From a virus (Duplodnaviria > Caudoviricetes): DNA of 24,150 nucleotides. The stretch is from positions 1 through 24,150 of the IMG/VR virus record IMGVR_UViG_3300033412_000062; one strand, given 5' to 3'. Every line of letters starts with the position of its first letter. The first letter of the stretch is position 1. Under the pieces are notes generated by a model. It saw only the letters and a list, made by a program, of their open reading frames with translations. It ran no database searches and was not told the DNA's origin. This document shows, in pieces, positions 5,020 through 14,922 of this stretch. A program made the translations under genes and the position numbers.

Positions 5020-5253
5020 CTACGCCTCGCCATCAATAACCTCCGCCGGCGGAAAACGCCGGTATCGCTTCCAGTAGGCATGCAGTCGACCGAGCCGCTC
5101 CTGCAGATCGGCCGCCATGTTGCGCTCGCCGATCTCGACCAAGCGAATAGATTTGAACGTCTCGCGACCGCCCTTGTAGCCGAGCATAACACCAAGCTGG
5201 CGCCGACTCAGGCCCATTTCCCTCCGCGCGGCCGCGATCTCGTCGCCTGTCAT
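5020..5253 (-). CDS. XRE-family HTH protein
   Basis: MTGDEIAAARREMGLSRRQLGVMLG...IRLVEIGER; ATGA overlap at 5250-5253. Confidence 0.75.
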   Translation of the reverse strand: MTGDEIAAARREMGLSRRQLGVMLGYKGGRETFKSIRLVEIGERNMAADLQERLGRLHAYWKRYRRFPPAEVIDGEA

Positions 5254-5408
5254 TTCCACCACCAGATTTCCCAGAAATCGCGCATAGCGCCCCGAGCGAT
5301 CACAGAGGCCTCGCCAGCTGACCAGCCCTCACGGCGCGCGTTCGCATAGGCCGCGCTTCCGAGCGCTTGCGCCTTCACCCATAGCCAGCGGCATTGATGA
5401 TCCGTCAC
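5250..5408 (-). CDS. Hypothetical protein (52 aa, Trp-rich)
   Basis: GTGA and ATGA coupling on both sides. Confidence 0.55.
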   Translation of the reverse strand: MTDHQCRWLWVKAQALGSAAYANARREGWSAGEASVIARGAMRDFWEIWWWK

Positions 5409-5638
5409 CGCATGTGCTCCGCGCGATACTTCTGGCCTTCTGGCGTGCGCAGCCATTCGGCGAACTCGGCCTCGTCCTCCGCCGCCTCGTGCAGCGCGTC
5501 GATCGCCTCTTGCTCTGTTGCCCCATGGCCAATCGGGCAACCGGGCTCGTATCCGTCGAAGGTCGCCTGATAGTCGAACTGCCGGATTGGAATCGGAGGA
5601 TAGATAAATTCGCAATGGATGATGCGATAGCCGATCAT
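5405..5638 (-). CDS. Hypothetical phage protein
   Basis: Coupled overlaps; GHGATEQEAIDAL resembles a HicB-like N-terminal fold motif. Confidence 0.7.
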   Translation of the reverse strand: MIGYRIIHCEFIYPPIPIRQFDYQATFDGYEPGCPIGHGATEQEAIDALHEAAEDEAEFAEWLRTPEGQKYRAEHMR

Positions 5639-6330: not shown

Positions 6331-6412
6331 TTCTCCCGAAGGTTAGGGCGCGGTGCCCTGCTGGAATACGGCCATCATAGGGGCCGTATCCGCAATGTCA
6401 ATATTTATTTTC
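6331..6412 (-). promoter_or_regulatory. Sigma70-type promoter plus conserved leader (copy 1)
   Basis: AT-rich UP-like element, TTGACA (6401-6396), 16 bp spacer, TATGAT (6379-6374). An 8-bp inverted repeat ATACGGCC/GGCCGTAT flanks the -10. Leader is CAGGGCACCGCGCCCTAACCTTCGGGAGA. Confidence 0.8.
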
Positions 6413-7943
6413 AGGGAATGGCGTCAACCATCGCAATACGCTGGCCAAGCCAGCGCATCACATTTACCGCCATACTATTTCCTAGCGACTTATAGCGCGG
6501 ACCATCCGGCGACCCGTTCTTGCCCCGCCACGGAATGTTGGTGAACCCATCCGGAAAACCTTGCAGTCGCTCGCATTCGGTCGGCGTCAGGCGCCGCACC
6601 ACCCACCGCGTCGCGATGTGCCACGGCTTCACCGTGTCGAGGGTGCCGGCGACATCTTCCATCGCCGTCGGCGCCCGCGTGTAGCCGCGGCCGTCATCGC
6701 CACGGAATCGATTCTGCCAGGCGAGCAGCGGCTCGACCTCATGAGCAATTGCGATCTGCCCACCACCGTTCGCATGCGATCCAGCGTGCCCCATCGCACG
6801 CAAAGTCGGCGCGATCTCGCTAGCATCGTTGCCGTAGTCCTTTTGGGAAAATGCTATCGTCGGCGGCCGCGCACCAGACGCCAGCGCATGCGACGGCGCG
6901 CCCGCCTGCGGCTGCGATCTGTTTTCCGGATGCGTGATCTGCGTCTCGTCGAAAACCAGTGGCTCGCCAATCATGGTTTGCCCCTCGTCCATCGTGGTGT
7001 TGACGCCCTTGTGCATCCGGGCTGTGAGAGGGTTTGCCACCTCTGGCGCAAGAACCGGCACGTAAGTTTCAAGATCGGCCGCATTCGCAGCAGCCCGACC
7101 TCGCGCCGCCGAAAGCGTCATCGACACCTCCGGCACCAGCGGCGTGCCGCGACCTGTGCCGTCCTCGCTCGCGTCGAATCCATCCGCCCGCAAGGCATGC
7201 GCAACGTCCGGAATCAATCCTCCATCGAGATCGAAGTCGGTACCGAGTCCGCCACTGCCTGTAGGGCGCGAGCTAATTGTTGGGGCAACTCTTTCCCCCG
7301 ATTGACGGCGCGGCGCAGGATTCCCCGACAGGCTTTCGCGCTCAAATAATACTGCGGCGGCACGCCGCCAGTCTCCAAGATATCCGACAACGAACACACG
7401 CCGTCGTCGTTGAGGGACAGCCCGTCCAAACCCGTCCACTCGGATAAACTGAGCGTCAAGCACGCGCCATGCGAGGCCGTACGCGCCTGCGTACCCTTCG
7501 ACAATCCCCGCAGACCGCCAGCCGTCTCGAGGGACTTCGACGCGGCGACCGGACAGGAGTCCCAGAAGGCTTGCAAAGCTGCGTCCTCCGTCGTCCGAAA
7601 GGACACCGGGGACGTTCTCCCACGCCAACCAGCGGGGGCGATACTTCCGAGCAATTGCGCCATAGGTAAGCATGAGCGAACCACGAGGGTCATCCAATCC
7701 CTCTCTGAGCCCGGCGACGGAGAACGACTGGCAGGGCGATCCGCCGACGAGAACATCGAGAGTTGCATCAGGCCATTCCTCGAATTTGGTGACGTCGCCA
7801 AGATTCGGCACGTCCGGATAATGAAACTTCAAGACCGCAGAGGGAAATTTGTCGCTTTCGGCATAGGCCCACGGCTGCCAGCCGAGCGGATGCCAGGCGG
7901 CCGTTGCCGCCTCGATGCCGCTAAACAGCGAAAGGTACCTCAT
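6411..7943 (-). CDS. dcm: DNA (cytosine-5)-methyltransferase
   Basis: Motif I LFSGIEA, IV GGSPCQSFS, VI WENVPG, VIII QRRRRVF, IX RRLTPTECERLQGFPD, X LGNSM. Start set at MRYLSL (ATGA overlap with 7940). Confidence 0.95.
   Translation of the reverse strand: MRYLSLFSGIEAATAAWHPLGWQPWAYAESDKFPSAVLKFHYPDVPNLGDVTKFEEWPDATLDVLVGGSPCQSFSVAGLREGLDDPRGSLMLTYGAIARKYRPRWLAWENVPGVLSDDGGRSFASLLGLLSGRRVEVPRDGWRSAGIVEGYAGAYGLAWRVLDAQFIRVDGFGRAVPQRRRRVFVVGYLGDWRRAAAVLFERESLSGNPAPRRQSGERVAPTISSRPTGSGGLGTDFDLDGGLIPDVAHALRADGFDASEDGTGRGTPLVPEVSMTLSAARGRAAANAADLETYVPVLAPEVANPLTARMHKGVNTTMDEGQTMIGEPLVFDETQITHPENRSQPQAGAPSHALASGARPPTIAFSQKDYGNDASEIAPTLRAMGHAGSHANGGGQIAIAHEVEPLLAWQNRFRGDDGRGYTRAPTAMEDVAGTLDTVKPWHIATRWVVRRLTPTECERLQGFPDGFTNIPWRGKNGSPDGPRYKSLGNSMAVNVMRWLGQRIAMVDAIP
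7214..7768 (-). CDS. Overprinted alternative-frame ORF inside the C5 MTase (M.EcoHK31I beta-like)
   Basis: 184-aa ORF with GAGGA upstream of MQLSMF; C-terminal CSLSDILETGGVPPQYYLSAKACRGILRRAVNRGKELP. Confidence 0.6.
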   Translation of the reverse strand: MQLSMFSSADRPASRSPSPGSERDWMTLVVRSCLPMAQLLGSIAPAGWRGRTSPVSFRTTEDAALQAFWDSCPVAASKSLETAGGLRGLSKGTQARTASHGACLTLSLSEWTGLDGLSLNDDGVCSLSDILETGGVPPQYYLSAKACRGILRRAVNRGKELPQQLARALQAVADSVPTSISMED

Positions 7944-8467
7944 AGCAGGCCATCCGGAATCAGGCAGTCCATCCGCCCAGGCGGCGGGCCCCATGCCGGA
8001 TTCCACTGCGCGCCCGCCTGGACGCGCTTGGCGATCGCGCGCCATGTCTCATCGGTGAATTTGGTCGGATCGTCGGGCGCCGCGGCAGGTTTGCCGTCCG
8101 CCGACGGCGTTGCGATCGGCCGCCCAGCGCGCTCGAGCATGGAGATGCACCAATTCCGCCACGTCGAATCCCACCGCATCTTGATCCCCTTCGCTCCGGA
8201 TTGCGCGGTCCAGTAGTTTTTGAACTTGGCCGCCTCGCGGCTCACCTCCGCAGGCCGCAACCCCACCCTGAGCGCGTAGTCACGCCACTCCGCCGGCAAA
8301 TCCCAATCATCCGGCAATCGCGTCCCGCGCACAGCCCGATCAGCTGCGCCCCCCTTTTTCGGTTTAGATATCCGCGCCTCCTCGAAAATCTCGAGGATGC
8401 GATCCTCAATGTCGGCGCCGAGATTGAGCGCGCGCAGTTTGCGGAGCGTTGTGGATGTGAATGTCAC
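7940..8467 (-). CDS. DnaT-like ssDNA-binding domain replication protein
   Basis: RGTRLPDDW...EAAKFKNYW...KMRWDSTWRNW resembles the C-terminal domain of phage replisome proteins and DnaT. Confidence 0.7.
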   Translation of the reverse strand: MTFTSTTLRKLRALNLGADIEDRILEIFEEARISKPKKGGAADRAVRGTRLPDDWDLPAEWRDYALRVGLRPAEVSREAAKFKNYWTAQSGAKGIKMRWDSTWRNWCISMLERAGRPIATPSADGKPAAAPDDPTKFTDETWRAIAKRVQAGAQWNPAWGPPPGRMDCLIPDGLL

Positions 8468-9519
8468 TTTGCACCTCTCGATTTGCGATAGTCTTTCATG
8501 AATTCCTGCACAGCGGCGTGCACCGCAGTCACTACCGGCTTATTGCAAGGCCCCTTGACCTGATCAGACAGCCACCACCCATTCTCCCAGCGCAGGCCGA
8601 ACGTCGCGAGCCGCTTGTCGCCGGTGCCGCGGATCGAAAAAACCGCATAGTTTCCCCCGATGCAGGCGCCCACATAGGTCGAGACGCAATGATGCATTGC
8701 GCGCCCCTCGTCGAACAGTTTTTCCCCCGAATCGACCGCGACAAACCGCAGCCCCATGAATTCCCATTCGACCGGCAGACCAGCGACCTTGAACGTCTCG
8801 CTGTATTCGATGCCGTGATTGGCCTTGAAGCGTTGCGAGGCGTTCATCCGACCGAGTTCGACGTGCCACCGCTCCATTGCTTGATGCGCCTGGTCGAAGG
8901 TCCAACGCGGATCGAACCGCCCCCAATGCGCCAAATCAACCAGATCGCTGACGACCCTCAATTGCTCCTGTTGCGTGAACCGGTTAAGCCTCGATGCGGC
9001 CCACTCCGGATATGGCACGGGATCGAATCCCCTCCGACGGATTGAAAACGACCACCACCGATCCATCGCAATCAGCCACAAATGCTGATGAAACGACTTT
9101 TCCGGAATTGATTGCGCCAGAATCGACGGGCCAACCTCGTGCGATATCGCGCCGATGATCCGCGCCTTGCCCGGCGACAGCGCCTTGCCGCTCAACCTGC
9201 GCAACTGCGGCGCGATCTTGTAATGTCGCATCACGTCGCGCAGTTTCGGCCCGCTCTCGACCCGATTGCGAAACATGCCCGCGATCTGGCCATATGCAGC
9301 CGCTCGCGTGATTTTCTTGGCGCCACAGGACAGCCCGAGCACGAGAACTGGCGCCACCGTCAGATATTCGAGGGCGCGCTCACTGCGATGAATCGCGGCC
9401 GCCGCGACCCGCACGAGGGCAATGTTCGAATAGAGCTTGCGAGCCTCACGATCCGGCCCCGCCAGATCACCGAGCTCCAATTGATCAAACTGGAAAAGCT
9501 TGTCATCGACCGTGATCAT
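8464..9519 (-). CDS. PcfJ-like domain protein
   Basis: LFDEGRAMHHCVSTY...VFSIR...QVKGPCN motif. Start MITVDD coupled to the dnaB stop. Confidence 0.8.
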   Translation of the reverse strand: MITVDDKLFQFDQLELGDLAGPDREARKLYSNIALVRVAAAAIHRSERALEYLTVAPVLVLGLSCGAKKITRAAAYGQIAGMFRNRVESGPKLRDVMRHYKIAPQLRRLSGKALSPGKARIIGAISHEVGPSILAQSIPEKSFHQHLWLIAMDRWWSFSIRRRGFDPVPYPEWAASRLNRFTQQEQLRVVSDLVDLAHWGRFDPRWTFDQAHQAMERWHVELGRMNASQRFKANHGIEYSETFKVAGLPVEWEFMGLRFVAVDSGEKLFDEGRAMHHCVSTYVGACIGGNYAVFSIRGTGDKRLATFGLRWENGWWLSDQVKGPCNKPVVTAVHAAVQEFMKDYRKSRGAK

Positions 9520-10928
9520 TTGAAATCCGCCGCCTCCGATAAATCCTGCCGCCGATCGTCCATCTCCGCGATCTCGTCCCGAACAACGTTGCAAGCGATG
9601 TCGCAGAACAGCCGCACCGTGCCGACCGGACCGCGACGCTGTTTCTCGATTGCCACCTCGAGCCGATGCTCGACCGATTCCATCTCTTTCGTCCAAATCA
9701 GGAATTCCGCACTTCCCGCCGGCGGCTCCTTTTTGGCCAGGTAATAGGCCGCCCGATAGAGGATCAAAACCGTGTCGGCATCCTGCTCGATGTCGCCGGA
9801 GTTGCGCAAATCAGCCAGCGTCGGCCGCTTGTCGTCGCGCGATTCTACGCCGCGGTTGATCTGGCAGAGCAGGAAAATTGGCACCTCGAGCTCTTTGGCC
9901 AGCGCCTTAAGCCCCGTTGTGATTTCGCCCGTCTCATTGACCTTGTTACCCGCATAGCGTCCGGAGGCCTTCACCAGCCCGAGATGGTCGACCACCATCG
10001 CTTTCAGGCCGTGCCGCCGCTTCCAATGTCGCGCACGCGCCGCGATGTCCGACACCATGAGGCCCGGCTGTTGCTCGATCCGGATCGGCAACTCGGCGAG
10101 CTCGCGCCCGGCATCCATCACCCGATGGAAAATGTTTTCGTGAAACCGACCCGACGCCATTTGCCAATACGTCATACGCTTGCCAGGTTGCCACATATGA
10201 TCGGCGATCATGCGCTGAGTCAGATCGACGTCGACCATCTCCGCGCTATAGAAAAACACCGAATGCCCGGCGAGGCCGATATTGCGCGCGATCCCGAGCG
10301 CCAACGCCGTTTTGCCCATGCCCGGCCGCCCAGCAATCACAATGAGTTCACCCGCCGCCGCGCCGAGCGTCCGATCATCTAGCGCCGCAAGGCCGTAGGA
10401 CAGCCCCCGCACCTTGCCGCTATTCTGGAAGGCGTGAGCCGTGGCATCGACCGCGCGCACCACCGATTCCCTCATCGTCACCGCCGGCGACCCAGAGGAC
10501 TGCCGAGCCGATACGATCCCATCGAGGGCCTCGACCGCCCAACTCGCCGCCTCCGCCGGATCTCCATTCGCCGAGCGGCCGAGTTCCTCCCCGATCGCCT
10601 TGAGCTCGCGCCGGTGCGCCATGTCGCGGATCGAATCGGCAAGTTGCACCGCCTCCGTCGGCAGGCATGCCGCGACCGCGCAGCGTGCAAGATAGTCCTT
10701 CACCGACAGATCATCGCGCCCCTTGATCTCCGCCGGCAGAAATTGCCGCAGCGTCACCGCCGAGGCTTTCTTGTCGGCGCCGACCAGATCGCCGATCACC
10801 TTCCAGATTTCTTGATGCAGCGGCTCGAAAAAGTCCTGCGGTAAAACCCGCGTCACCAGATGGCCCACCGAAGCGTTGTTCATCAGCGCGAAGCCGATCA
10901 CCATCTGCTCAGTTTCAATGTCATGCAT
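9516..10928 (-). CDS. dnaB: Replicative DNA helicase DnaB
   Basis: N-terminal ETEQMVIG..DFFEPLHQEIW, Walker A GRPGMGKT, SAEM, VVDHL, QINR, LADLRNSGDIEQDAD, KQRRGPVG. Confidence 0.95.
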   Translation of the reverse strand: MHDIETEQMVIGFALMNNASVGHLVTRVLPQDFFEPLHQEIWKVIGDLVGADKKASAVTLRQFLPAEIKGRDDLSVKDYLARCAVAACLPTEAVQLADSIRDMAHRRELKAIGEELGRSANGDPAEAASWAVEALDGIVSARQSSGSPAVTMRESVVRAVDATAHAFQNSGKVRGLSYGLAALDDRTLGAAAGELIVIAGRPGMGKTALALGIARNIGLAGHSVFFYSAEMVDVDLTQRMIADHMWQPGKRMTYWQMASGRFHENIFHRVMDAGRELAELPIRIEQQPGLMVSDIAARARHWKRRHGLKAMVVDHLGLVKASGRYAGNKVNETGEITTGLKALAKELEVPIFLLCQINRGVESRDDKRPTLADLRNSGDIEQDADTVLILYRAAYYLAKKEPPAGSAEFLIWTKEMESVEHRLEVAIEKQRRGPVGTVRLFCDIACNVVRDEIAEMDDRRQDLSEAADFK

Positions 10929-11292
10929 TGTTGCGCGACCCAGCAATTCCGAGGGCGACCTTAGCCGCGTGTCGCCGCTCCCATTCCGATTTTGGAATCG
11001 ACTTGACCCGATGAAATTCCTCGTCCGCCTCGAAATCGGCAGAGACGCTCATAACCTGCGCCAGGCATTCAAGCGTGATCTGGCATTGTCCGATTTCTTG
11101 TGGGATCACACCGGCCGGCCGCGAATAAACCCGCAGCGCGATCGACCGCACATCACCGATCGGCAGCCCCATTGCCTGCCCGAGCTCGATCGCCTCCTCA
11201 AGGAAACGCCGCGCGCGTTCCGTGTCGTCAGCTGCAATCTCGCCGAAATTCTCCACTGCCCAACTCAAGATTTCCGCCGGTCTATTCGCCAT
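10921..11292 (-). CDS. MazG-like all-alpha NTP pyrophosphohydrolase-fold protein
   Basis: RFLEEAIEL...QEIGQ (EExxE...ExxD-like, with the last Asp replaced); RBS AGGGGAG. Confidence 0.6.
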   Translation of the reverse strand: MANRPAEILSWAVENFGEIAADDTERARRFLEEAIELGQAMGLPIGDVRSIALRVYSRPAGVIPQEIGQCQITLECLAQVMSVSADFEADEEFHRVKSIPKSEWERRHAAKVALGIAGSRNNA

Positions 11293-11309
11293 CGTCGCTC
11301 CCCTGTTTC

Positions 11310-11822
11310 CACGATTCAGATTCTAGAATTCTTCCCTATTGATAGACTCTTTTCCCCTAACCTAGAGTTTCAGCCATTCAGCAACGCAAAGCGTTGTGAA
11401 TGGCGACACAGGCCACCCATAGGCAGGAGCGATTCCCGCCTACGGCTGCCGGGGCAATGTCGATTTTTCCGACCTCAATCGAGGGCGCAAAAACTAACAC
11501 GCACTTGCGACACGATGCCGGGGGCATCTCGGCCCGACCATTCGCGGAGTCTTGTTCGCGCCGAGGACGCGGATATCCGGGCTTTACTCCCAAGCCATGC
11601 CCGCCGGCCTCCGATATCAATCCATCCATCGGCCGGTTTTGGACGCGCGCAGGCGGATCGGTGTCCGCGTGACCTACGCACGCGACCGATTTTGCAACTT
11701 TGGCGCTTGTCAGGAGGGTTGACGGAAAGGGGTGAATTACCTATTTTCCGTTCCTGACCGATCGCCGCCAAGCAATCTCGGTCTTAGTTTCCGGCCCCGC
11801 AGTTTGTCGCTGCGGGGCCGTT
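11310..11822 (-). ncRNA. Candidate ~500-nt structured RNA (replication primer or leader-like)
   Basis: No convincing ORF. Hairpins at 11373-11404, 11420-11442, 11604-11636, 11644-11684 and 11709-11758; plus-strand A-C mismatches become G-U on the minus strand. Upstream TTGACG promoter. Confidence 0.5.
11719..11747 (+). promoter_or_regulatory. Sigma70-type promoter of the antisense RNA
   Basis: TTGACG, 17 bp spacer, TATTTT. Confidence 0.7.
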
Positions 11823-11828
11823 GTTTTT
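11754..11828 (+). ncRNA. ~75-nt counter-transcribed antisense RNA (ctRNA/RNAI-like)
   Basis: Promoter upstream, hairpin GACCGA...TCGGTC (11756-11783), then an intrinsic terminator; antisense to the replication operon. Confidence 0.65.
11792..11828 (+). terminator. Rho-independent terminator
   Basis: Perfect 11-bp stem CGGCCCCGCAG/CTGCGGGGCCG followed by TTGTTTTT. Confidence 0.85.
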
Positions 11829-11855
11829 GTATGCCTGTCATCCGGCATACGTCAA
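11826..11855 (-). promoter_or_regulatory. Candidate leftward promoter with overlapping inverted repeat
   Basis: TTGACG (11855-11850) with a weak -10 (CATACA at 16 bp or TACAAA at 18 bp); 7-bp IR GTATGCC/GGCATAC at 11829-11850. Confidence 0.45.
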
Positions 11856-11999
11856 TGGATATACGCCGAACGAGGTAACTAGGGCTTGTTGCTCAGACAG
11901 AGCGACACACCATACCTGCGATCTTCATGCTTTCGAGGGATGGAATTTAATTGTGAAAGAGCAGGCAAATCGCTGTTGACCCCACAGCGAATTGGAGTC

Positions 12000-12605
12000 C
12001 TATCGACTGAGTCGCGGGGCGAGAGGCTTCCAAGAGACGCGCCGCAACTCAGTCTGATTCGCCCACCCGCGACGCCAGCAGAACCAGGCAAAGGCCATCG
12101 TATTCGTCGACTTCGGCCCCGCCCAGCCGTCCCGATGCATCATCGGCAACCGATTGCGGAAAACATAGACGCGCGCGAGATCCCCGCCGTCCATAATGTC
12201 CGACCGCGACGACCCCTCTAGAAACGCCAGCCGCATCAGCATGTAAACGCGCGGACAGAGTTCGATCGCTTTCCGCGCGAACTCCGTGGCATTCTTGAAA
12301 GGTGGATTTGTCACGATCGCCTGAGCCCCGAGAGGCAATTGCCGCTCGAGCAGAAAATCCCACCCGGCCATATCTTGATCTGGCGAATCGTAGTCGACGA
12401 GATCCGTGGCGTAGACCTGCCGCCCAGCCGCGCGCAGCACCCGCACGATCGATCCCGGACCGCACGCCGGCTCCCAAATCAATTGCGGCACATCCTCGAC
12501 CTCGAGCAGCGCATGCACCGCCTCCGGAGGCGTCTCATAGAGTTGGTTTTTCGTCTCTTTCAACGCATGGCGCTTGTCGCCATTGCCCGAGGCCAACTGT
12601 TTCAA
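12000..12605 (-). CDS. Amino (N6-adenine-type) DNA methyltransferase, small phage type
   Basis: LYETP, SAM-binding WEPACGPG, TDL, catalytic IVTNPPF. Confidence 0.85.
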   Translation of the reverse strand: MKQLASGNGDKRHALKETKNQLYETPPEAVHALLEVEDVPQLIWEPACGPGSIVRVLRAAGRQVYATDLVDYDSPDQDMAGWDFLLERQLPLGAQAIVTNPPFKNATEFARKAIELCPRVYMLMRLAFLEGSSRSDIMDGGDLARVYVFRNRLPMMHRDGWAGPKSTNTMAFAWFCWRRGWANQTELRRVSWKPLAPRLSR

Positions 12606-13081
12606 ATCTGCATCTCCGGTTCGGAAGGTCCAACATCATCCCACCGCCAGGCCGAGACCCGCAGCCGCGGAAAATCACTGTAGCATTTCGAGATTTGCCA
12701 CATCACGATCAGGGAGTCGTCGACCCAACAGATTTTGTTCAAGGCGTCGCCAGCGATCTTCGCGTAATTGTCGCCGTCCGGTTTCGACGTCGCCGGAATA
12801 TCACCGGCCGCAGCTGCGGTCCGTTTCTTTATCGACCAGGATTCCGGTATCGGCACGAACGCCTCGACCATCACCGTCAAGGCCTCATCGAACGGCGCCC
12901 GCGCGCCCATCGCAACGCGCCCAGCCAGCGCCAGCGCCGATTCGTATGCCGCGCCAGCCGGATCGGGATAGGTTTGTACCCACGGCGCCCGGCCGTTCGG
13001 CGTCACCACCCGCGACCGATGGCGCTTTTTCCCCATCGGGACGCCGGGCAGCAGGATTGTCACTAACGGATCATTGCTCAC
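12602..13081 (-). CDS. rusA: Holliday junction resolvase RusA
   Basis: KPDGDNYAKIAGDALNKICWVDDSLIV catalytic motif. Confidence 0.92.
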   Translation of the reverse strand: MSNDPLVTILLPGVPMGKKRHRSRVVTPNGRAPWVQTYPDPAGAAYESALALAGRVAMGARAPFDEALTVMVEAFVPIPESWSIKKRTAAAAGDIPATSKPDGDNYAKIAGDALNKICWVDDSLIVMWQISKCYSDFPRLRVSAWRWDDVGPSEPEMQI

Positions 13082-13343
13082 GACTGCCCCGCATATATTT
13101 GAAAATCATCTCGGCCGTCGCGACTTCGGAGGCTTCCGCGATCGCTGGCCATCCGAGCTCGAGGATCACCGTTTTGTCATCCATCACGATTCCGACCTTG
13201 AACACACCGCGCGCCTTGGCATCGGCGATTTTGGCCGCGAATCCAGGATCAACGACCTCACCGCGCTCCGCCTGCTTGATCAGGCGCGCGATACTATTGG
13301 CTTGTGACCGCAGAACGCGCAGCGGCGATTGGGAAGTGGTCAT
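13071..13343 (-). CDS. Hypothetical protein (90 aa)
   Basis: Strong RBS AGGAGG before the ATG at 13343. Confidence 0.75.
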   Translation of the reverse strand: MTTSQSPLRVLRSQANSIARLIKQAERGEVVDPGFAAKIADAKARGVFKVGIVMDDKTVILELGWPAIAEASEVATAEMIFKYMRGSREQ

Positions 13344-13369
13344 TTTCAGCCCTCCTACCCTTAGACAAG

Positions 13370-13401
13370 CGAACGGCCCCGGGTTTCCCCGAGGCCGCCC
13401 G
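13370..13401 (-). terminator. GC-rich GAAA-tetraloop hairpin (terminator or processing stem)
   Basis: 14-bp stem with 3 G-U pairs on the minus strand and a GAAA loop; only a weak U-tract. Confidence 0.55.
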
Positions 13402-13433
13402 ATCTCGTCCCGCGCGCGCTCTTTTATCCACCG

Positions 13434-13505
13434 TGCCGGCACCGGGTTTTGCCGCTACCCGCAATTGCCCGTTAGGGCCGTCTTATAGCTTTAGACCATG
13501 CCGGC
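13434..13505 (-). ncRNA. tRNA-like cloverleaf RNA (non-canonical)
   Basis: GCCGGCA UG GUCU-AAAGCUAUA-AGAC G GCCC-UAAC-GGGC AAUUG CGGGU-AGCGGCAAA-ACCCG G UGCCGGC A. Confidence 0.6.
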
Positions 13506-13530
13506 TATTCGCGCGCGCCGCTGATTCTAG

Positions 13531-14340
13531 TTAGGCGTTGCCGGCAGGCTCGCTCCGCGTGAAGTAGCTTTCAGCCTCCTCGCGCGCGGCCTCTTTGCTG
13601 GCCTTCATGCTCGATCGCGTCGCCGGAACGGCCGCCGGGCGCCGAGGCGGGGCATCGTCGGCCTTGGGCGCGCGCGCCGTAGCCTTGGCGTCCTTCTCCG
13701 CCTTGGTGATCAAAGTGCGCTCAGAGCCAGCCGGAGGCTCCGCATTCGCCCCCTTTTTCCCCGAGCCAGGAGGCCGACCGCGCTTGCCGGCGCCACTCTT
13801 GCCAGCCTTGGCGTTCTCGGCGGCCTTCTTGGCATCCAGCTTGGAAATGCCGGACTTGATCTGCCGCTCCTGCTCCGCATAGAAGGCGTCCGACCAGGCC
13901 TTATATTGCGGTACCGAAGGATCATAGGGCGGATTGTGCGCCTCGTTGCGCATCGCCGCCTCTTGCCCTTCCTTCGCTGCACGGTCGACAGCCGGCACCC
14001 GCGGCTCGTCCAGGAACAGCGACAGTTGCTCGCCGATGTCCGCGCCGGAATAGGCGGCGGCGAGCATCCGATTCGCCATCTCGGCCTTGAACTCGGCCTC
14101 GCCCTCTGGCGTCGACAGCAGGATCGAATCCTTGACCATCTGCAGCTTGAAGCCGTCGGACTTGATTGTCTTGACGTAGGCCCGAAGCGTACCGCTGGCC
14201 TTGTCGAGCTTGGCTTTGAGCTCGGAATATTTGTCGCGGTGGACGAGGAATAGCGCCCTCGTTTCTGGATCCACCAGATTGTGCCCCTTCGCCTTTTTCG
14301 GCGCCTTGGCTTCGGTCTCAGACTTTTTTGGACGTGCCAT
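13531..14340 (-). CDS. GapR(DUF2312)-like protein with an RMF-like motif, AT-hook and basic tail
   Basis: GHN...LRAYVKTIKSDGFKLQMVK (GapR-like); AAKEGQEAAM...PPYDP..QYKAW (RMF-like); KRGRPPG. Confidence 0.6.
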   Translation of the reverse strand: MARPKKSETEAKAPKKAKGHNLVDPETRALFLVHRDKYSELKAKLDKASGTLRAYVKTIKSDGFKLQMVKDSILLSTPEGEAEFKAEMANRMLAAAYSGADIGEQLSLFLDEPRVPAVDRAAKEGQEAAMRNEAHNPPYDPSVPQYKAWSDAFYAEQERQIKSGISKLDAKKAAENAKAGKSGAGKRGRPPGSGKKGANAEPPAGSERTLITKAEKDAKATARAPKADDAPPRRPAAVPATRSSMKASKEAAREEAESYFTRSEPAGNA

Positions 14341-14566
14341 GAACGTGATCGCTCCGTGGAGTTAGGCGGCCATGCGCCGCGCAGTAGGAAGAACCGTTTA
14401 TTGCATCACGCGAACAAAAATGGAAATCAGGACTCATCACGTCTCCAATGGGGAAACGGCATTGCGATCCGATCGCACCAGGAGCACCGCGCAGCGCTGA
14501 GACGGCCGCGAATACGCCGCGCGGCGCCTCTTCCTCACACGACAACACAAAAGCGGCCAGACCCAT
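14318..14566 (-). CDS. GcrA C-terminal domain-only protein
   Basis: CRFPIGD...FHFC...GSSYCAAH matches the GcrA C-terminal signature; no N-terminal HTH. Confidence 0.75.
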   Translation of the reverse strand: MGLAAFVLSCEEEAPRGVFAAVSALRGAPGAIGSQCRFPIGDVMSPDFHFCSRDAINGSSYCAAHGRLTPRSDHVHGTSKKV

Positions 14567-14581
14567 CGGAGCACCAGATTT

Positions 14582-14827
14582 TCAAGGATTCGGGAGAATG
14601 TCCTTGGCTGGCCATCCTGTTATTTTTGAGATCGGCTCGACATATTTCCGGGGAATAGCCCGTTTGATGAACTCGCCGACGGCTTTCCGGTCGGCGCCGA
14701 GCTCGTCCGCCATCAGCTTCACGGCCCCATGCTCCCGGCCGTTTTTCTCGACAAAGAATGCCAGGACGCGCGCGGCGGCCGCGGCGTTTTCCTTTTGGGC
14801 GGTTTTGGACTTCACAGGTTTGGCCAT
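14582..14827 (-). CDS. Cro/YdaS-like HTH regulator
   Basis: GAVKLMADELGADRKAVGEF...IPRKYVEPISKITGWPAKDILP; first gene of the leftward arm. Confidence 0.7.
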   Translation of the reverse strand: MAKPVKSKTAQKENAAAAARVLAFFVEKNGREHGAVKLMADELGADRKAVGEFIKRAIPRKYVEPISKITGWPAKDILPNP

Positions 14828-14844
14828 GAATTCAACCTACACCC

Positions 14845-14922
14845 GAAAATAAATATTGACAATGGCAATTCGCGGGCGCATGGTCGCGACATCAGGGCAG
14901 CGCGCCCTAACCCTTCGGGAGA
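14845..14922 (+). promoter_or_regulatory. Sigma70-type promoter plus conserved leader (copy 2)
   Basis: GAAAATAAATATTGACA, 17 bp spacer, CATGGT; leader CAGGGCAGCGCGCCCTAACCCTTCGGGAGA. Confidence 0.75.

Follow-up and report, generated by a model that had tools for sequence, protein, structure and literature searches.

The locus and its genes

The window analysed here is a whole virus contig of 24,150 nt that is ~37% complete, and its relatives are phages of 60–87 kb. It contains a non-coding gap, which an initial annotation had placed at 11293..11860 and interpreted as a candidate antisense-controlled origin of replication with a geometry like that of ColE1. The gap is present, but its true extent reaches 11999. 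Among the genes named beside it, dnaB and pcfJ were confirmed by Pfam, whereas the label "mazG" found no Pfam match and only PHROG matches of unknown function. The gene described as DnaT-like does match initiator PHROGs, but with the C-terminal half only. The features of the locus are collected in Table 1.

Table 1. Positions, strands and basis of the features of the window
Feature	Position	Strand	Basis
Short initiator, 175 aa; small helical N-terminus and DnaT-like domain	7940..8467	-	PHROG and N-terminal profile comparisons, predicted model
DnaB-like replicative helicase	9516..10946	-	PF03796, PF00772
Predicted long sense RNA (~530 nt): antisense target, switch, class A structured domain	11293..11820	-	Fold z, homologues, covariation
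Purine/AT-rich 3′ tract, ending in the ribosome-binding site of the next gene (11303-11298); candidate melting/hybrid zone	11293..11371	-	Composition (putative role)
Long-range helix, 11626-11619 with 11348-11341, closing a ~290-nt domain	11341..11626	-	8 pairs, 95% paired, 1 changed on both sides
Further hairpins in the ~290-nt domain	11502-11454, 11450-11411, 11404-11372	-	
Near-invariant 136-nt core	11497..11632	-	130/136 columns invariant in 5 phages
Helix 1 of the class A domain	11644..11682	-	11 pairs, 6 changed on both sides, 100% paired in 5 sequences
Switch arm beta, downstream partner of alpha	11684..11706	-	Inverted repeat I6; pairing tests
Antisense RNA promoter, TTGACG-17-TATTTT	11719..11747	+	Promoter scan; conservation
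Antisense (counter-transcribed) RNA, ~76 nt	11754..11829	+	Two-hairpin fold, conservation, terminator-arm pairing
Antisense recognition stem-loop; loop CGCCAA, 11766-11771	11756-11783	+	
Switch arm alpha: 5′ arm and UUGGCG loop of the antisense-targeted hairpin on the sense RNA	11763..11783	-	Predicted fold; cognate > non-cognate
Antisense terminator, then U-tail	11792-11820	+	
Predicted sense promoter: -35 TTGACG 11855-11850, -10-like TACAAA 11831-11826	11826..11855	-	Conserved -35

Several other elements of the window lie nearby. An 11-bp hairpin (11966-11994) is located between the upstream methyltransferase gene and the sense promoter, and possibly insulates the module. The C5 methyltransferase gene at 6411-8045 contains a 195-aa out-of-frame ORF without a family match (7214-7801, minus strand), an arrangement that we take to resemble that of methyltransferases in which a second subunit overlaps. 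The product of 13531-14340 (minus strand), a 269-aa protein without known function, is kept in 10 of 13 related genomes and marks the family. GC skew tracks transcription and marks no origin.

In the related genome G002, a PHROG scan of 92 picked ORFs identified portal, capsid, terminase, RecT-like and DnaB proteins, while polymerase, primase, integrase and RepC were absent from those ORFs. Searches for tyrosine integrase were positive in 0/5, 1/5 (weak, below the cut-off) and 0/4 of the records searched, the weak tyrosine-recombinase-like match (G009:C1:34258-34689) being the sole one among the 13 related genomes. ParA was found in none of five genomes, except for one weak match that is the P-loop of DnaB, and resolvase in none of the five genomes searched. 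Five complete genomes were also devoid of reverse transcriptase, so that no retron or other RT-linked RNA is indicated. A phage RNase H gene is carried by three of the 13 genomes, i.e., G002 (L045 6584-7048, among head genes), G003 and G012. The hosts are probably Hyphomicrobiales, as suggested by a GcrA-like gene and by the names on the relatives of one Rep protein (that of L063), which come from Bradyrhizobium, Labrenzia and Hyphomicrobiales.

An antisense cassette with two convergent promoters

The plus-strand promoter of the initial annotation was recovered in a scan that called two promoter-like sites, compared to 0.6 in shuffled sequences, and its -35 element, with TA exactly 17 nt on, recurs in 16/16 loci. 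The hairpin and terminator that were said to follow it are likewise present, the latter at 11792-11829; the terminator count alone (2 vs 1.8 in shuffles) is not above chance. Together, these elements had been thought to define an RNA of ~75 nt, and the predicted product is ~76 nt long with two hairpins (z = -4.95). On the opposite strand, the TTGACG proposed as a minus-strand -35 was found in place, and the same element lies 134–150 nt from the antisense -35 in 16/16 loci, reading TTGAC in 14 and TGGAC in two. Since these hexamers were sought in windows set by the HMM match, the evidence is their fixed spacing. The consensus scan did not call the sense promoter, the -10 of which (TACAAA) is without the last T; transcription from it would start near 11820.

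To fetch loci for comparison, 70 relatives of the 175-aa protein were aligned, and this alignment was used along with three DNA patterns and two further shared proteins. In the pattern scan, 16/27 matches were due to chance. A profile of the cassette, covering the upstream ~150 nt, yielded 16 loci and then four more. Following removal of L014, which is near-identical to L013, and with duplicates of the same contigs left out, the pair of convergent promoters and a ~80-nt, two-hairpin antisense RNA are present at 19 distinct related phage loci. Each of 13 genomes has one copy. More distant DnaB loci, including one with a full-length initiator (L083), gave no cassette match below E 0.2.

Across loci, the antisense RNA ranges in length from 78 to 94 nt and consists of a recognition stem-loop and a terminator with widely differing sequences. 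In 16 of the 19 cases, the best pairing is that between the two terminator arms of one and the same locus. The target loops of the sense strand, as read by eye, mostly begin with pyrimidine-U-N-purine, which we take to be a loop of the U-turn type.

RNA or initiator gene behind the cassette

The slot behind the cassette is occupied by an initiator gene in three of the 19 loci and by a non-coding stretch in the other 16. In the former (Rep-type) loci, L063, L169 and L173, the gene is found within about 60 nt. For example, the O-like Rep of L063 (PHROG 26426) starts 55 nt past the antisense promoter and has tblastn matches annotated as replication protein. In L169, the cassette is followed by a 117-aa initiator N-terminal domain (PHROG 3926) and then by a repeat-like non-coding stretch (5094-5610); this split initiator, consisting of a head only, is a possible intermediate between the Rep and RNA types. 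The weakest of the three assignments is L173 (2812-4959, minus strand), where a domain scoring 0.95 against a "putative Replication protein" cluster is fused to a superfamily 2 helicase. Because it drives real initiator genes in these three relatives, the cassette is tied to replication control.

In RNA-type loci, the non-coding slot measures 279–431 nt before the next gene and belongs to one of six sequence classes; several members are known for A, B, D and E. Fifteen of the sixteen encode C-terminal initiator halves only, and the other (L061) is cut off inside dnaB. A natural pair is provided by L063, with a whole Rep behind the cassette, and L062, with RNA in that place plus an 83-aa orphan that matches the C-terminus of the L063 Rep (53% identity, E 6e-18). 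The first gene behind the RNA varies from phage to phage, dnaB lies 0.3–4 kb away, and class D is found with two helicase systems, all of which fits a DNA-acting element better than the leader of one gene. Class B, in turn, occurs with two kinds of C-terminal domain. In L013, a ProQ/FinO gene (907-1245) directly follows the class C RNA, and its product could chaperone antisense pairing.

The Rep-type loci number only three and all are without DnaB, so that helicase type partly confounds the swap. A distribution of 8/10 RNA-type and 0/3 Rep-type genomes is seen only for DnaB, the short initiator and apparent opposite-frame ORFs over dnaB. In the genomes compared, no alternative initiator stands out, but the RNA type travels largely with DnaB, G005 and G007 excepted. 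A tree of a shared protein places the Rep-type G006 beside the class A G002 at 88/94, a weak result with no starred branch and with two Rep-type genomes missing.

Structure of the predicted long sense RNA

A structured minus-strand RNA had been foreseen, and folding bears this out, with -237 kcal/mol (z = -6.3) for 11293-11825 on the minus strand vs -212 kcal/mol (z = -3.9) on the plus strand. The sense strand folds better than the antisense strand in 14/16 leaders. Folding z values of the 15 leaders folded range from -5.3 to +1.2, and are above -1.1 in six.

The whole element of the window represents class A, which is known from five distinct phages and one partial locus. For comparison with its near-invariant core, dnaB of the same five phages is 65–88% identical with only 21% of third positions invariant, and the best 136-nt window of that gene has 89/136 invariant columns. 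Recent transfer seems a less likely cause of the invariant core, since conserved blocks alternate with variable, covarying hairpins. In the five-sequence alignment, 102 predicted pairs are 93.6% paired, and both-side changes affect 15 pairs vs 7.6 in shuffles (0/500), the structure having been derived from the same alignment as was used in the covariation test. Covariation among homologues, an expectation of the initial annotation, is thus seen in the flanking helices and is best supported by helix 1 (6/11 pairs compensatory); the core helices never vary and are therefore uninformative either way. Two-member alignments of classes D and E have 8 and 11 compensatory pairs, respectively. The class A fold also includes invariant G-U pairs, and ~50 nt separate the end of its long-range helix from the start codon that follows.

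The 3′ tract, originally described as purine/G-rich, is purine- and AT-rich in the relatives, but its G-runs are not conserved. Strong G-runs are confined to class C, and G-C skew is small (-0.04 to +0.11). In the class C locus L013 (~820-840), two G6 runs three bases apart near the 3′ end make a good candidate site for R-loop nucleation. Homology of the tract to the origin linkers of Rep-type loci was considered and rejected, the best p value being 0.02 among 32 comparisons. A hairpin like that at 11454-11502 is found by itself ahead of rusA in two phages of class B (L009 4748-4794 and L024 2542-2587), and is possibly a mobile or protein-binding element. In metatranscriptome runs X21 and X22, a class A relative is found on long contigs with even depth across divergent operons, a pattern that is compatible with DNA and carries no information on start or strand.

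Coding potential and known families

No conserved protein ORF crosses the gap, in agreement with the initial annotation. Classes A, B, D and E are without codon-phase bias in 22/22 pairs, and most pairs have frame-breaking indels. A hidden protein was considered and rejected. The length of an 83-aa minus-strand ORF varies from 53 to 139 aa among relatives, and all six variable bases of the core alter its amino acids, with third positions as fixed as the rest. Recoding is argued against by mixed stop codons.

The sequence matched no Rfam family at E<=10, including the Rfam ctRNAs, and blastn against 72,556 plasmids gave no match at E<=1. Similar DNA in cultured phages or plasmids was limited to chance matches or none, and both searches of genome contigs for prophage relatives were empty. 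In the literature, largely that outside subscription journals, no paper on such a phage module was found; catalogues in supplements could list the motifs unannotated. Judged by these comparisons, the module is real, conserved, antisense-gated and uncatalogued.

A predicted switch in the sense RNA

In the predicted fold, arm alpha of the antisense target pairs with the downstream arm beta. A similar relation exists in other loci, where the target arm pairs with the segment just past the antisense promoter better within its own locus than across loci. The cognate excess has p values of 0.001 (15 loci), 0.01 (seven loci, one per class) and 0.0002 (19 loci), which ignore relatedness among the loci and, in the 19-locus test, count one mis-picked alpha arm (L030). 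Three control windows in that test were without excess. The effect is collective, as the own partner ranked first for only 2/15 target arms.

At folding equilibrium, helix 1 persists whether or not the antisense RNA is there, and no downstream refolding is predicted. In Rep-type loci, predicted accessibility of the ribosome site barely shifts (0.36 to 0.26, 0.44 to 0.44 and 0.17 to 0.19), which gives no support to a translational switch there.

The short initiator and the search for a hidden one

The absence of a full-length initiator of the lambda O kind, claimed at the outset, was upheld in that the 175-aa protein has neither a winged-helix origin-binding domain nor a repeat linker. Its nearest long relatives have DUF1376 or HTH_36 heads in 12/24 scanned, a set that includes six short proteins. 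Foldseek with the model of the 175-aa protein (pLDDT 85.7) returned nothing at E<=0.001. The ~40-aa helical N-terminus of the short proteins recurs in some longer initiators, and might bind the origin.

Twenty-one initiator N-terminal profiles revealed no winged-helix head in ten RNA-type genomes, nine of which are 95–100% complete and one 76%. Across the 13 genomes, these profiles matched the Rep-type G006 and G012, while G013 was matched only by its own model; the winged-helix head of G012 was found by an independent profile. Matches in RNA-type genomes were to the helical N-terminus of G010's own short initiator and to a doubtful frame in G008 (E 0.006). The profiles also matched a ~20-residue motif in small proteins of RNA-type and Rep-type genomes alike.

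No repeat family of at least three copies occurs in 6400-14900, a weak test in which the Rep-type controls had none either, and exact DnaA-box or CtrA consensus sequences occur in 0/16 loci. RNase H is encoded in 2/10 RNA-type and 1/3 Rep-type genomes, and is not tied to the RNA type.

Proposed mechanism and rival explanations

Apparent from sequence comparison are the swap of RNA and initiator gene, the two-promoter cassette, the antisense RNA with a target loop of the U-turn type, the conserved non-coding structure and the covarying alpha-beta pairing. What the cassette controls in three phages is a protein initiator; most simply, then, the RNA would do the initiator's job in the other sixteen. 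The favoured reading, given somewhat better than even odds, is that a folded, antisense-controlled, non-coding RNA takes the slot of the initiator gene and opens or primes the phage origin in a manner that is ColE1-like, without membership in that family. In this role, it would most likely replace the origin-binding half of the phage initiator. Accordingly worded, the ColE1-like antisense geometry of the initial annotation survives in its layout and covarying structure, but not as a sequence relationship with ColE1 or a conserved G-rich tract.

The mechanism might be as follows. The ~530-nt sense transcript would fold co-transcriptionally, with alpha pairing with beta, and its 3′ part would stay hybridised to the template near the AT/purine-rich tract to form an R-loop. 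The short DnaT-like protein would then bind the displaced strand and load the phage DnaB, and host Pol I might use the RNA end as a primer and extend it. Binding of the antisense RNA to the alpha loop would block alpha-beta pairing and misfold the sense RNA, which could limit re-initiation or exclude phages of the same type. All steps from folding onward are inferred. Against an origin role stand the lack of a conserved G-cluster, the small skew, the independence of RNase H from RNA type and the absence of predicted refolding. The need for copy control is likewise left unexplained, with ParA, resolvase and a convincing integrase absent from the genomes searched.

Alternatively, the long RNA could be only the 5′ leader of the dnaB operon, with an antisense RNA that switches termination or translation, in the manner of repABC, IncI/IncB or pT181, and an origin elsewhere to which the short initiator or a host protein binds. 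This main rival is considered less likely, though it draws on several observations. An mRNA leader is what the cassette has to be at the three Rep-type loci, but those loci manage with ~150 nt, and 300–400 extra conserved nt in the RNA type go unexplained, as does the consistent lack of the initiator head in loci with the long RNA. The window has no terminator at the end of the sense RNA, so that this RNA probably reads into the operon, and the long-range helix stops just short of the next start codon, yet the next gene is highly variable. A hairpin with a U-tract is located near the 3′ end in both class D and both class E members, and in 8/16 leaders overall, but there is none in the window and no shared place for it in class A. 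In addition, ProQ/FinO is encoded beside the RNA in L013/L014, and repABC leaders offer a precedent, as described in the available part of PMC3155836. With their terminator-like ends, classes D and E may be where a leader role holds. Origin and leader roles could also coexist, the transcript probably reading into the operon.

It is improbable that the conserved block is a DNA origin, acting through hairpins on single-stranded DNA or the binding of a host or phage protein, with antisense-gated transcription only activating melting as at the lambda ori. Near-invariant sequence would suit protein or DNA recognition, and some classes fold little better than shuffles (the six leaders noted above), but preferential folding of the sense strand and invariant G-U pairs speak for an RNA, and the DnaA-box, CtrA and (weak) repeat searches were negative. 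A still smaller chance is given to an RNA that acts in trans or catalytically, as a scaffold or guide for the short initiator, a processive antiterminator or a primer-making ribozyme. Its multi-helix domain, long-range closing helix and invariant core would seem to resemble catalytic or RNP RNAs, whereas there is no Rfam match and the RNA class is not tied to initiator type, as seen in the two C-terminal domains of class B and the two helicases of class D.

Should the RNA act at the origin, as preferred here, the initiator itself may be a swappable cassette, in which one conserved antisense switch is combined with a protein initiator in some phages and with an RNA initiator in others. The RNA initiators, of at least six kinds and with no detectable relationship to ColE1, would open the origin and hand it to a headless DnaT-like loader, RNA-only origin recognition having arisen several times outside ColE1. 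This broader proposal is tentative, and falls somewhat short of an even chance. If true, protein and RNA initiators replace each other, with L062 vs L063 as natural minimal pairs, and Rep-free, tunable replicons with separate incompatibility loops could be had for Alphaproteobacteria. Even as a leader, the module would add an uncatalogued family of large structured phage RNAs and a new antisense RNA.

Comparison with known systems

The 175-aa protein is homologous to the C-terminal ~135 residues of lambdoid O-type initiators, which consist of a DUF1376/HTH_36 head, a linker and a DnaT-like tail. Unlike those proteins, which have an origin within the gene, it is without head and repeat linker, and the window lacks the full-length initiator and repeat array of a lambdoid iteron origin (by the weak repeat test). 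The proposed R-loop resembles the T4 R-loop origins and E. coli cSDR, in which replication is initiated at R-loops with helicase loading. DnaT is needed in cSDR, and the available part of PMC5333043 describes neither an antisense gate nor a large folded RNA domain in these systems.

The RNAI of I-complex plasmids (IncI/IncB/IncK) and CopA/CopT of R1 share with the module antisense control by kissing loops and a target loop that pairs downstream. The loop UUGGCG of the window is presumably linked to IncI, a link for which a literature search gave no paper. Those systems control rep translation through a leader peptide, unlike the module, which has no conserved leader ORF. A role of the I-complex loop in incompatibility is described in the part of PMC10724649 available.

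A short counter-transcript with its own promoter in a structured leader, and control of replication, are also features of the repABC ctRNA and repC leader of Alphaproteobacteria (available part of PMC3155836), the hosts of which are likely similar. In repABC, the ctRNA lies between repB and repC, and the origin is inside repC. In contrast to repABC, the module comes with no RepC-like or ParA gene in the genomes searched and no Rfam ctRNA match, and no initiator gene lies behind it in 16/19 loci. The ctRNA-induced intrinsic terminator of the repABC leader has no counterpart in the window, and has candidates in classes D and E.

Priming by an RNA under antisense control is known chiefly from plasmids of the ColE1 type. 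The module differs from these in having no sequence or covariance-model match to RNA I/RNA II, an antisense RNA of ~80 nt with two hairpins vs 108 nt, six sequence classes and no conserved counterpart of the G-rich stretch at which the persistent hybrid of ColE1 nucleates. It also differs in residing in phages of 60–87 kb, which provide both a helicase and the C-terminal half of an initiator themselves. Like ColE1, the module may do without an origin-binding Rep: no winged-helix head was found in the ten RNA-type genomes, but a short helical N-terminus remains and the window itself is 37% complete. In both, the antisense target arm pairs with a downstream segment, as in the alpha-beta switch model of ColE1. 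The long RNA is non-coding, structured (by prediction in the module) and of similar length. Its 5′ end, as predicted for the module from sequence and conservation, is matched by a complementary antisense RNA that is short, convergent and ends at the sense start. The module thereby matches the geometry of the general RNA I/RNA II mechanism, as outlined in the available part of PMC12361487.
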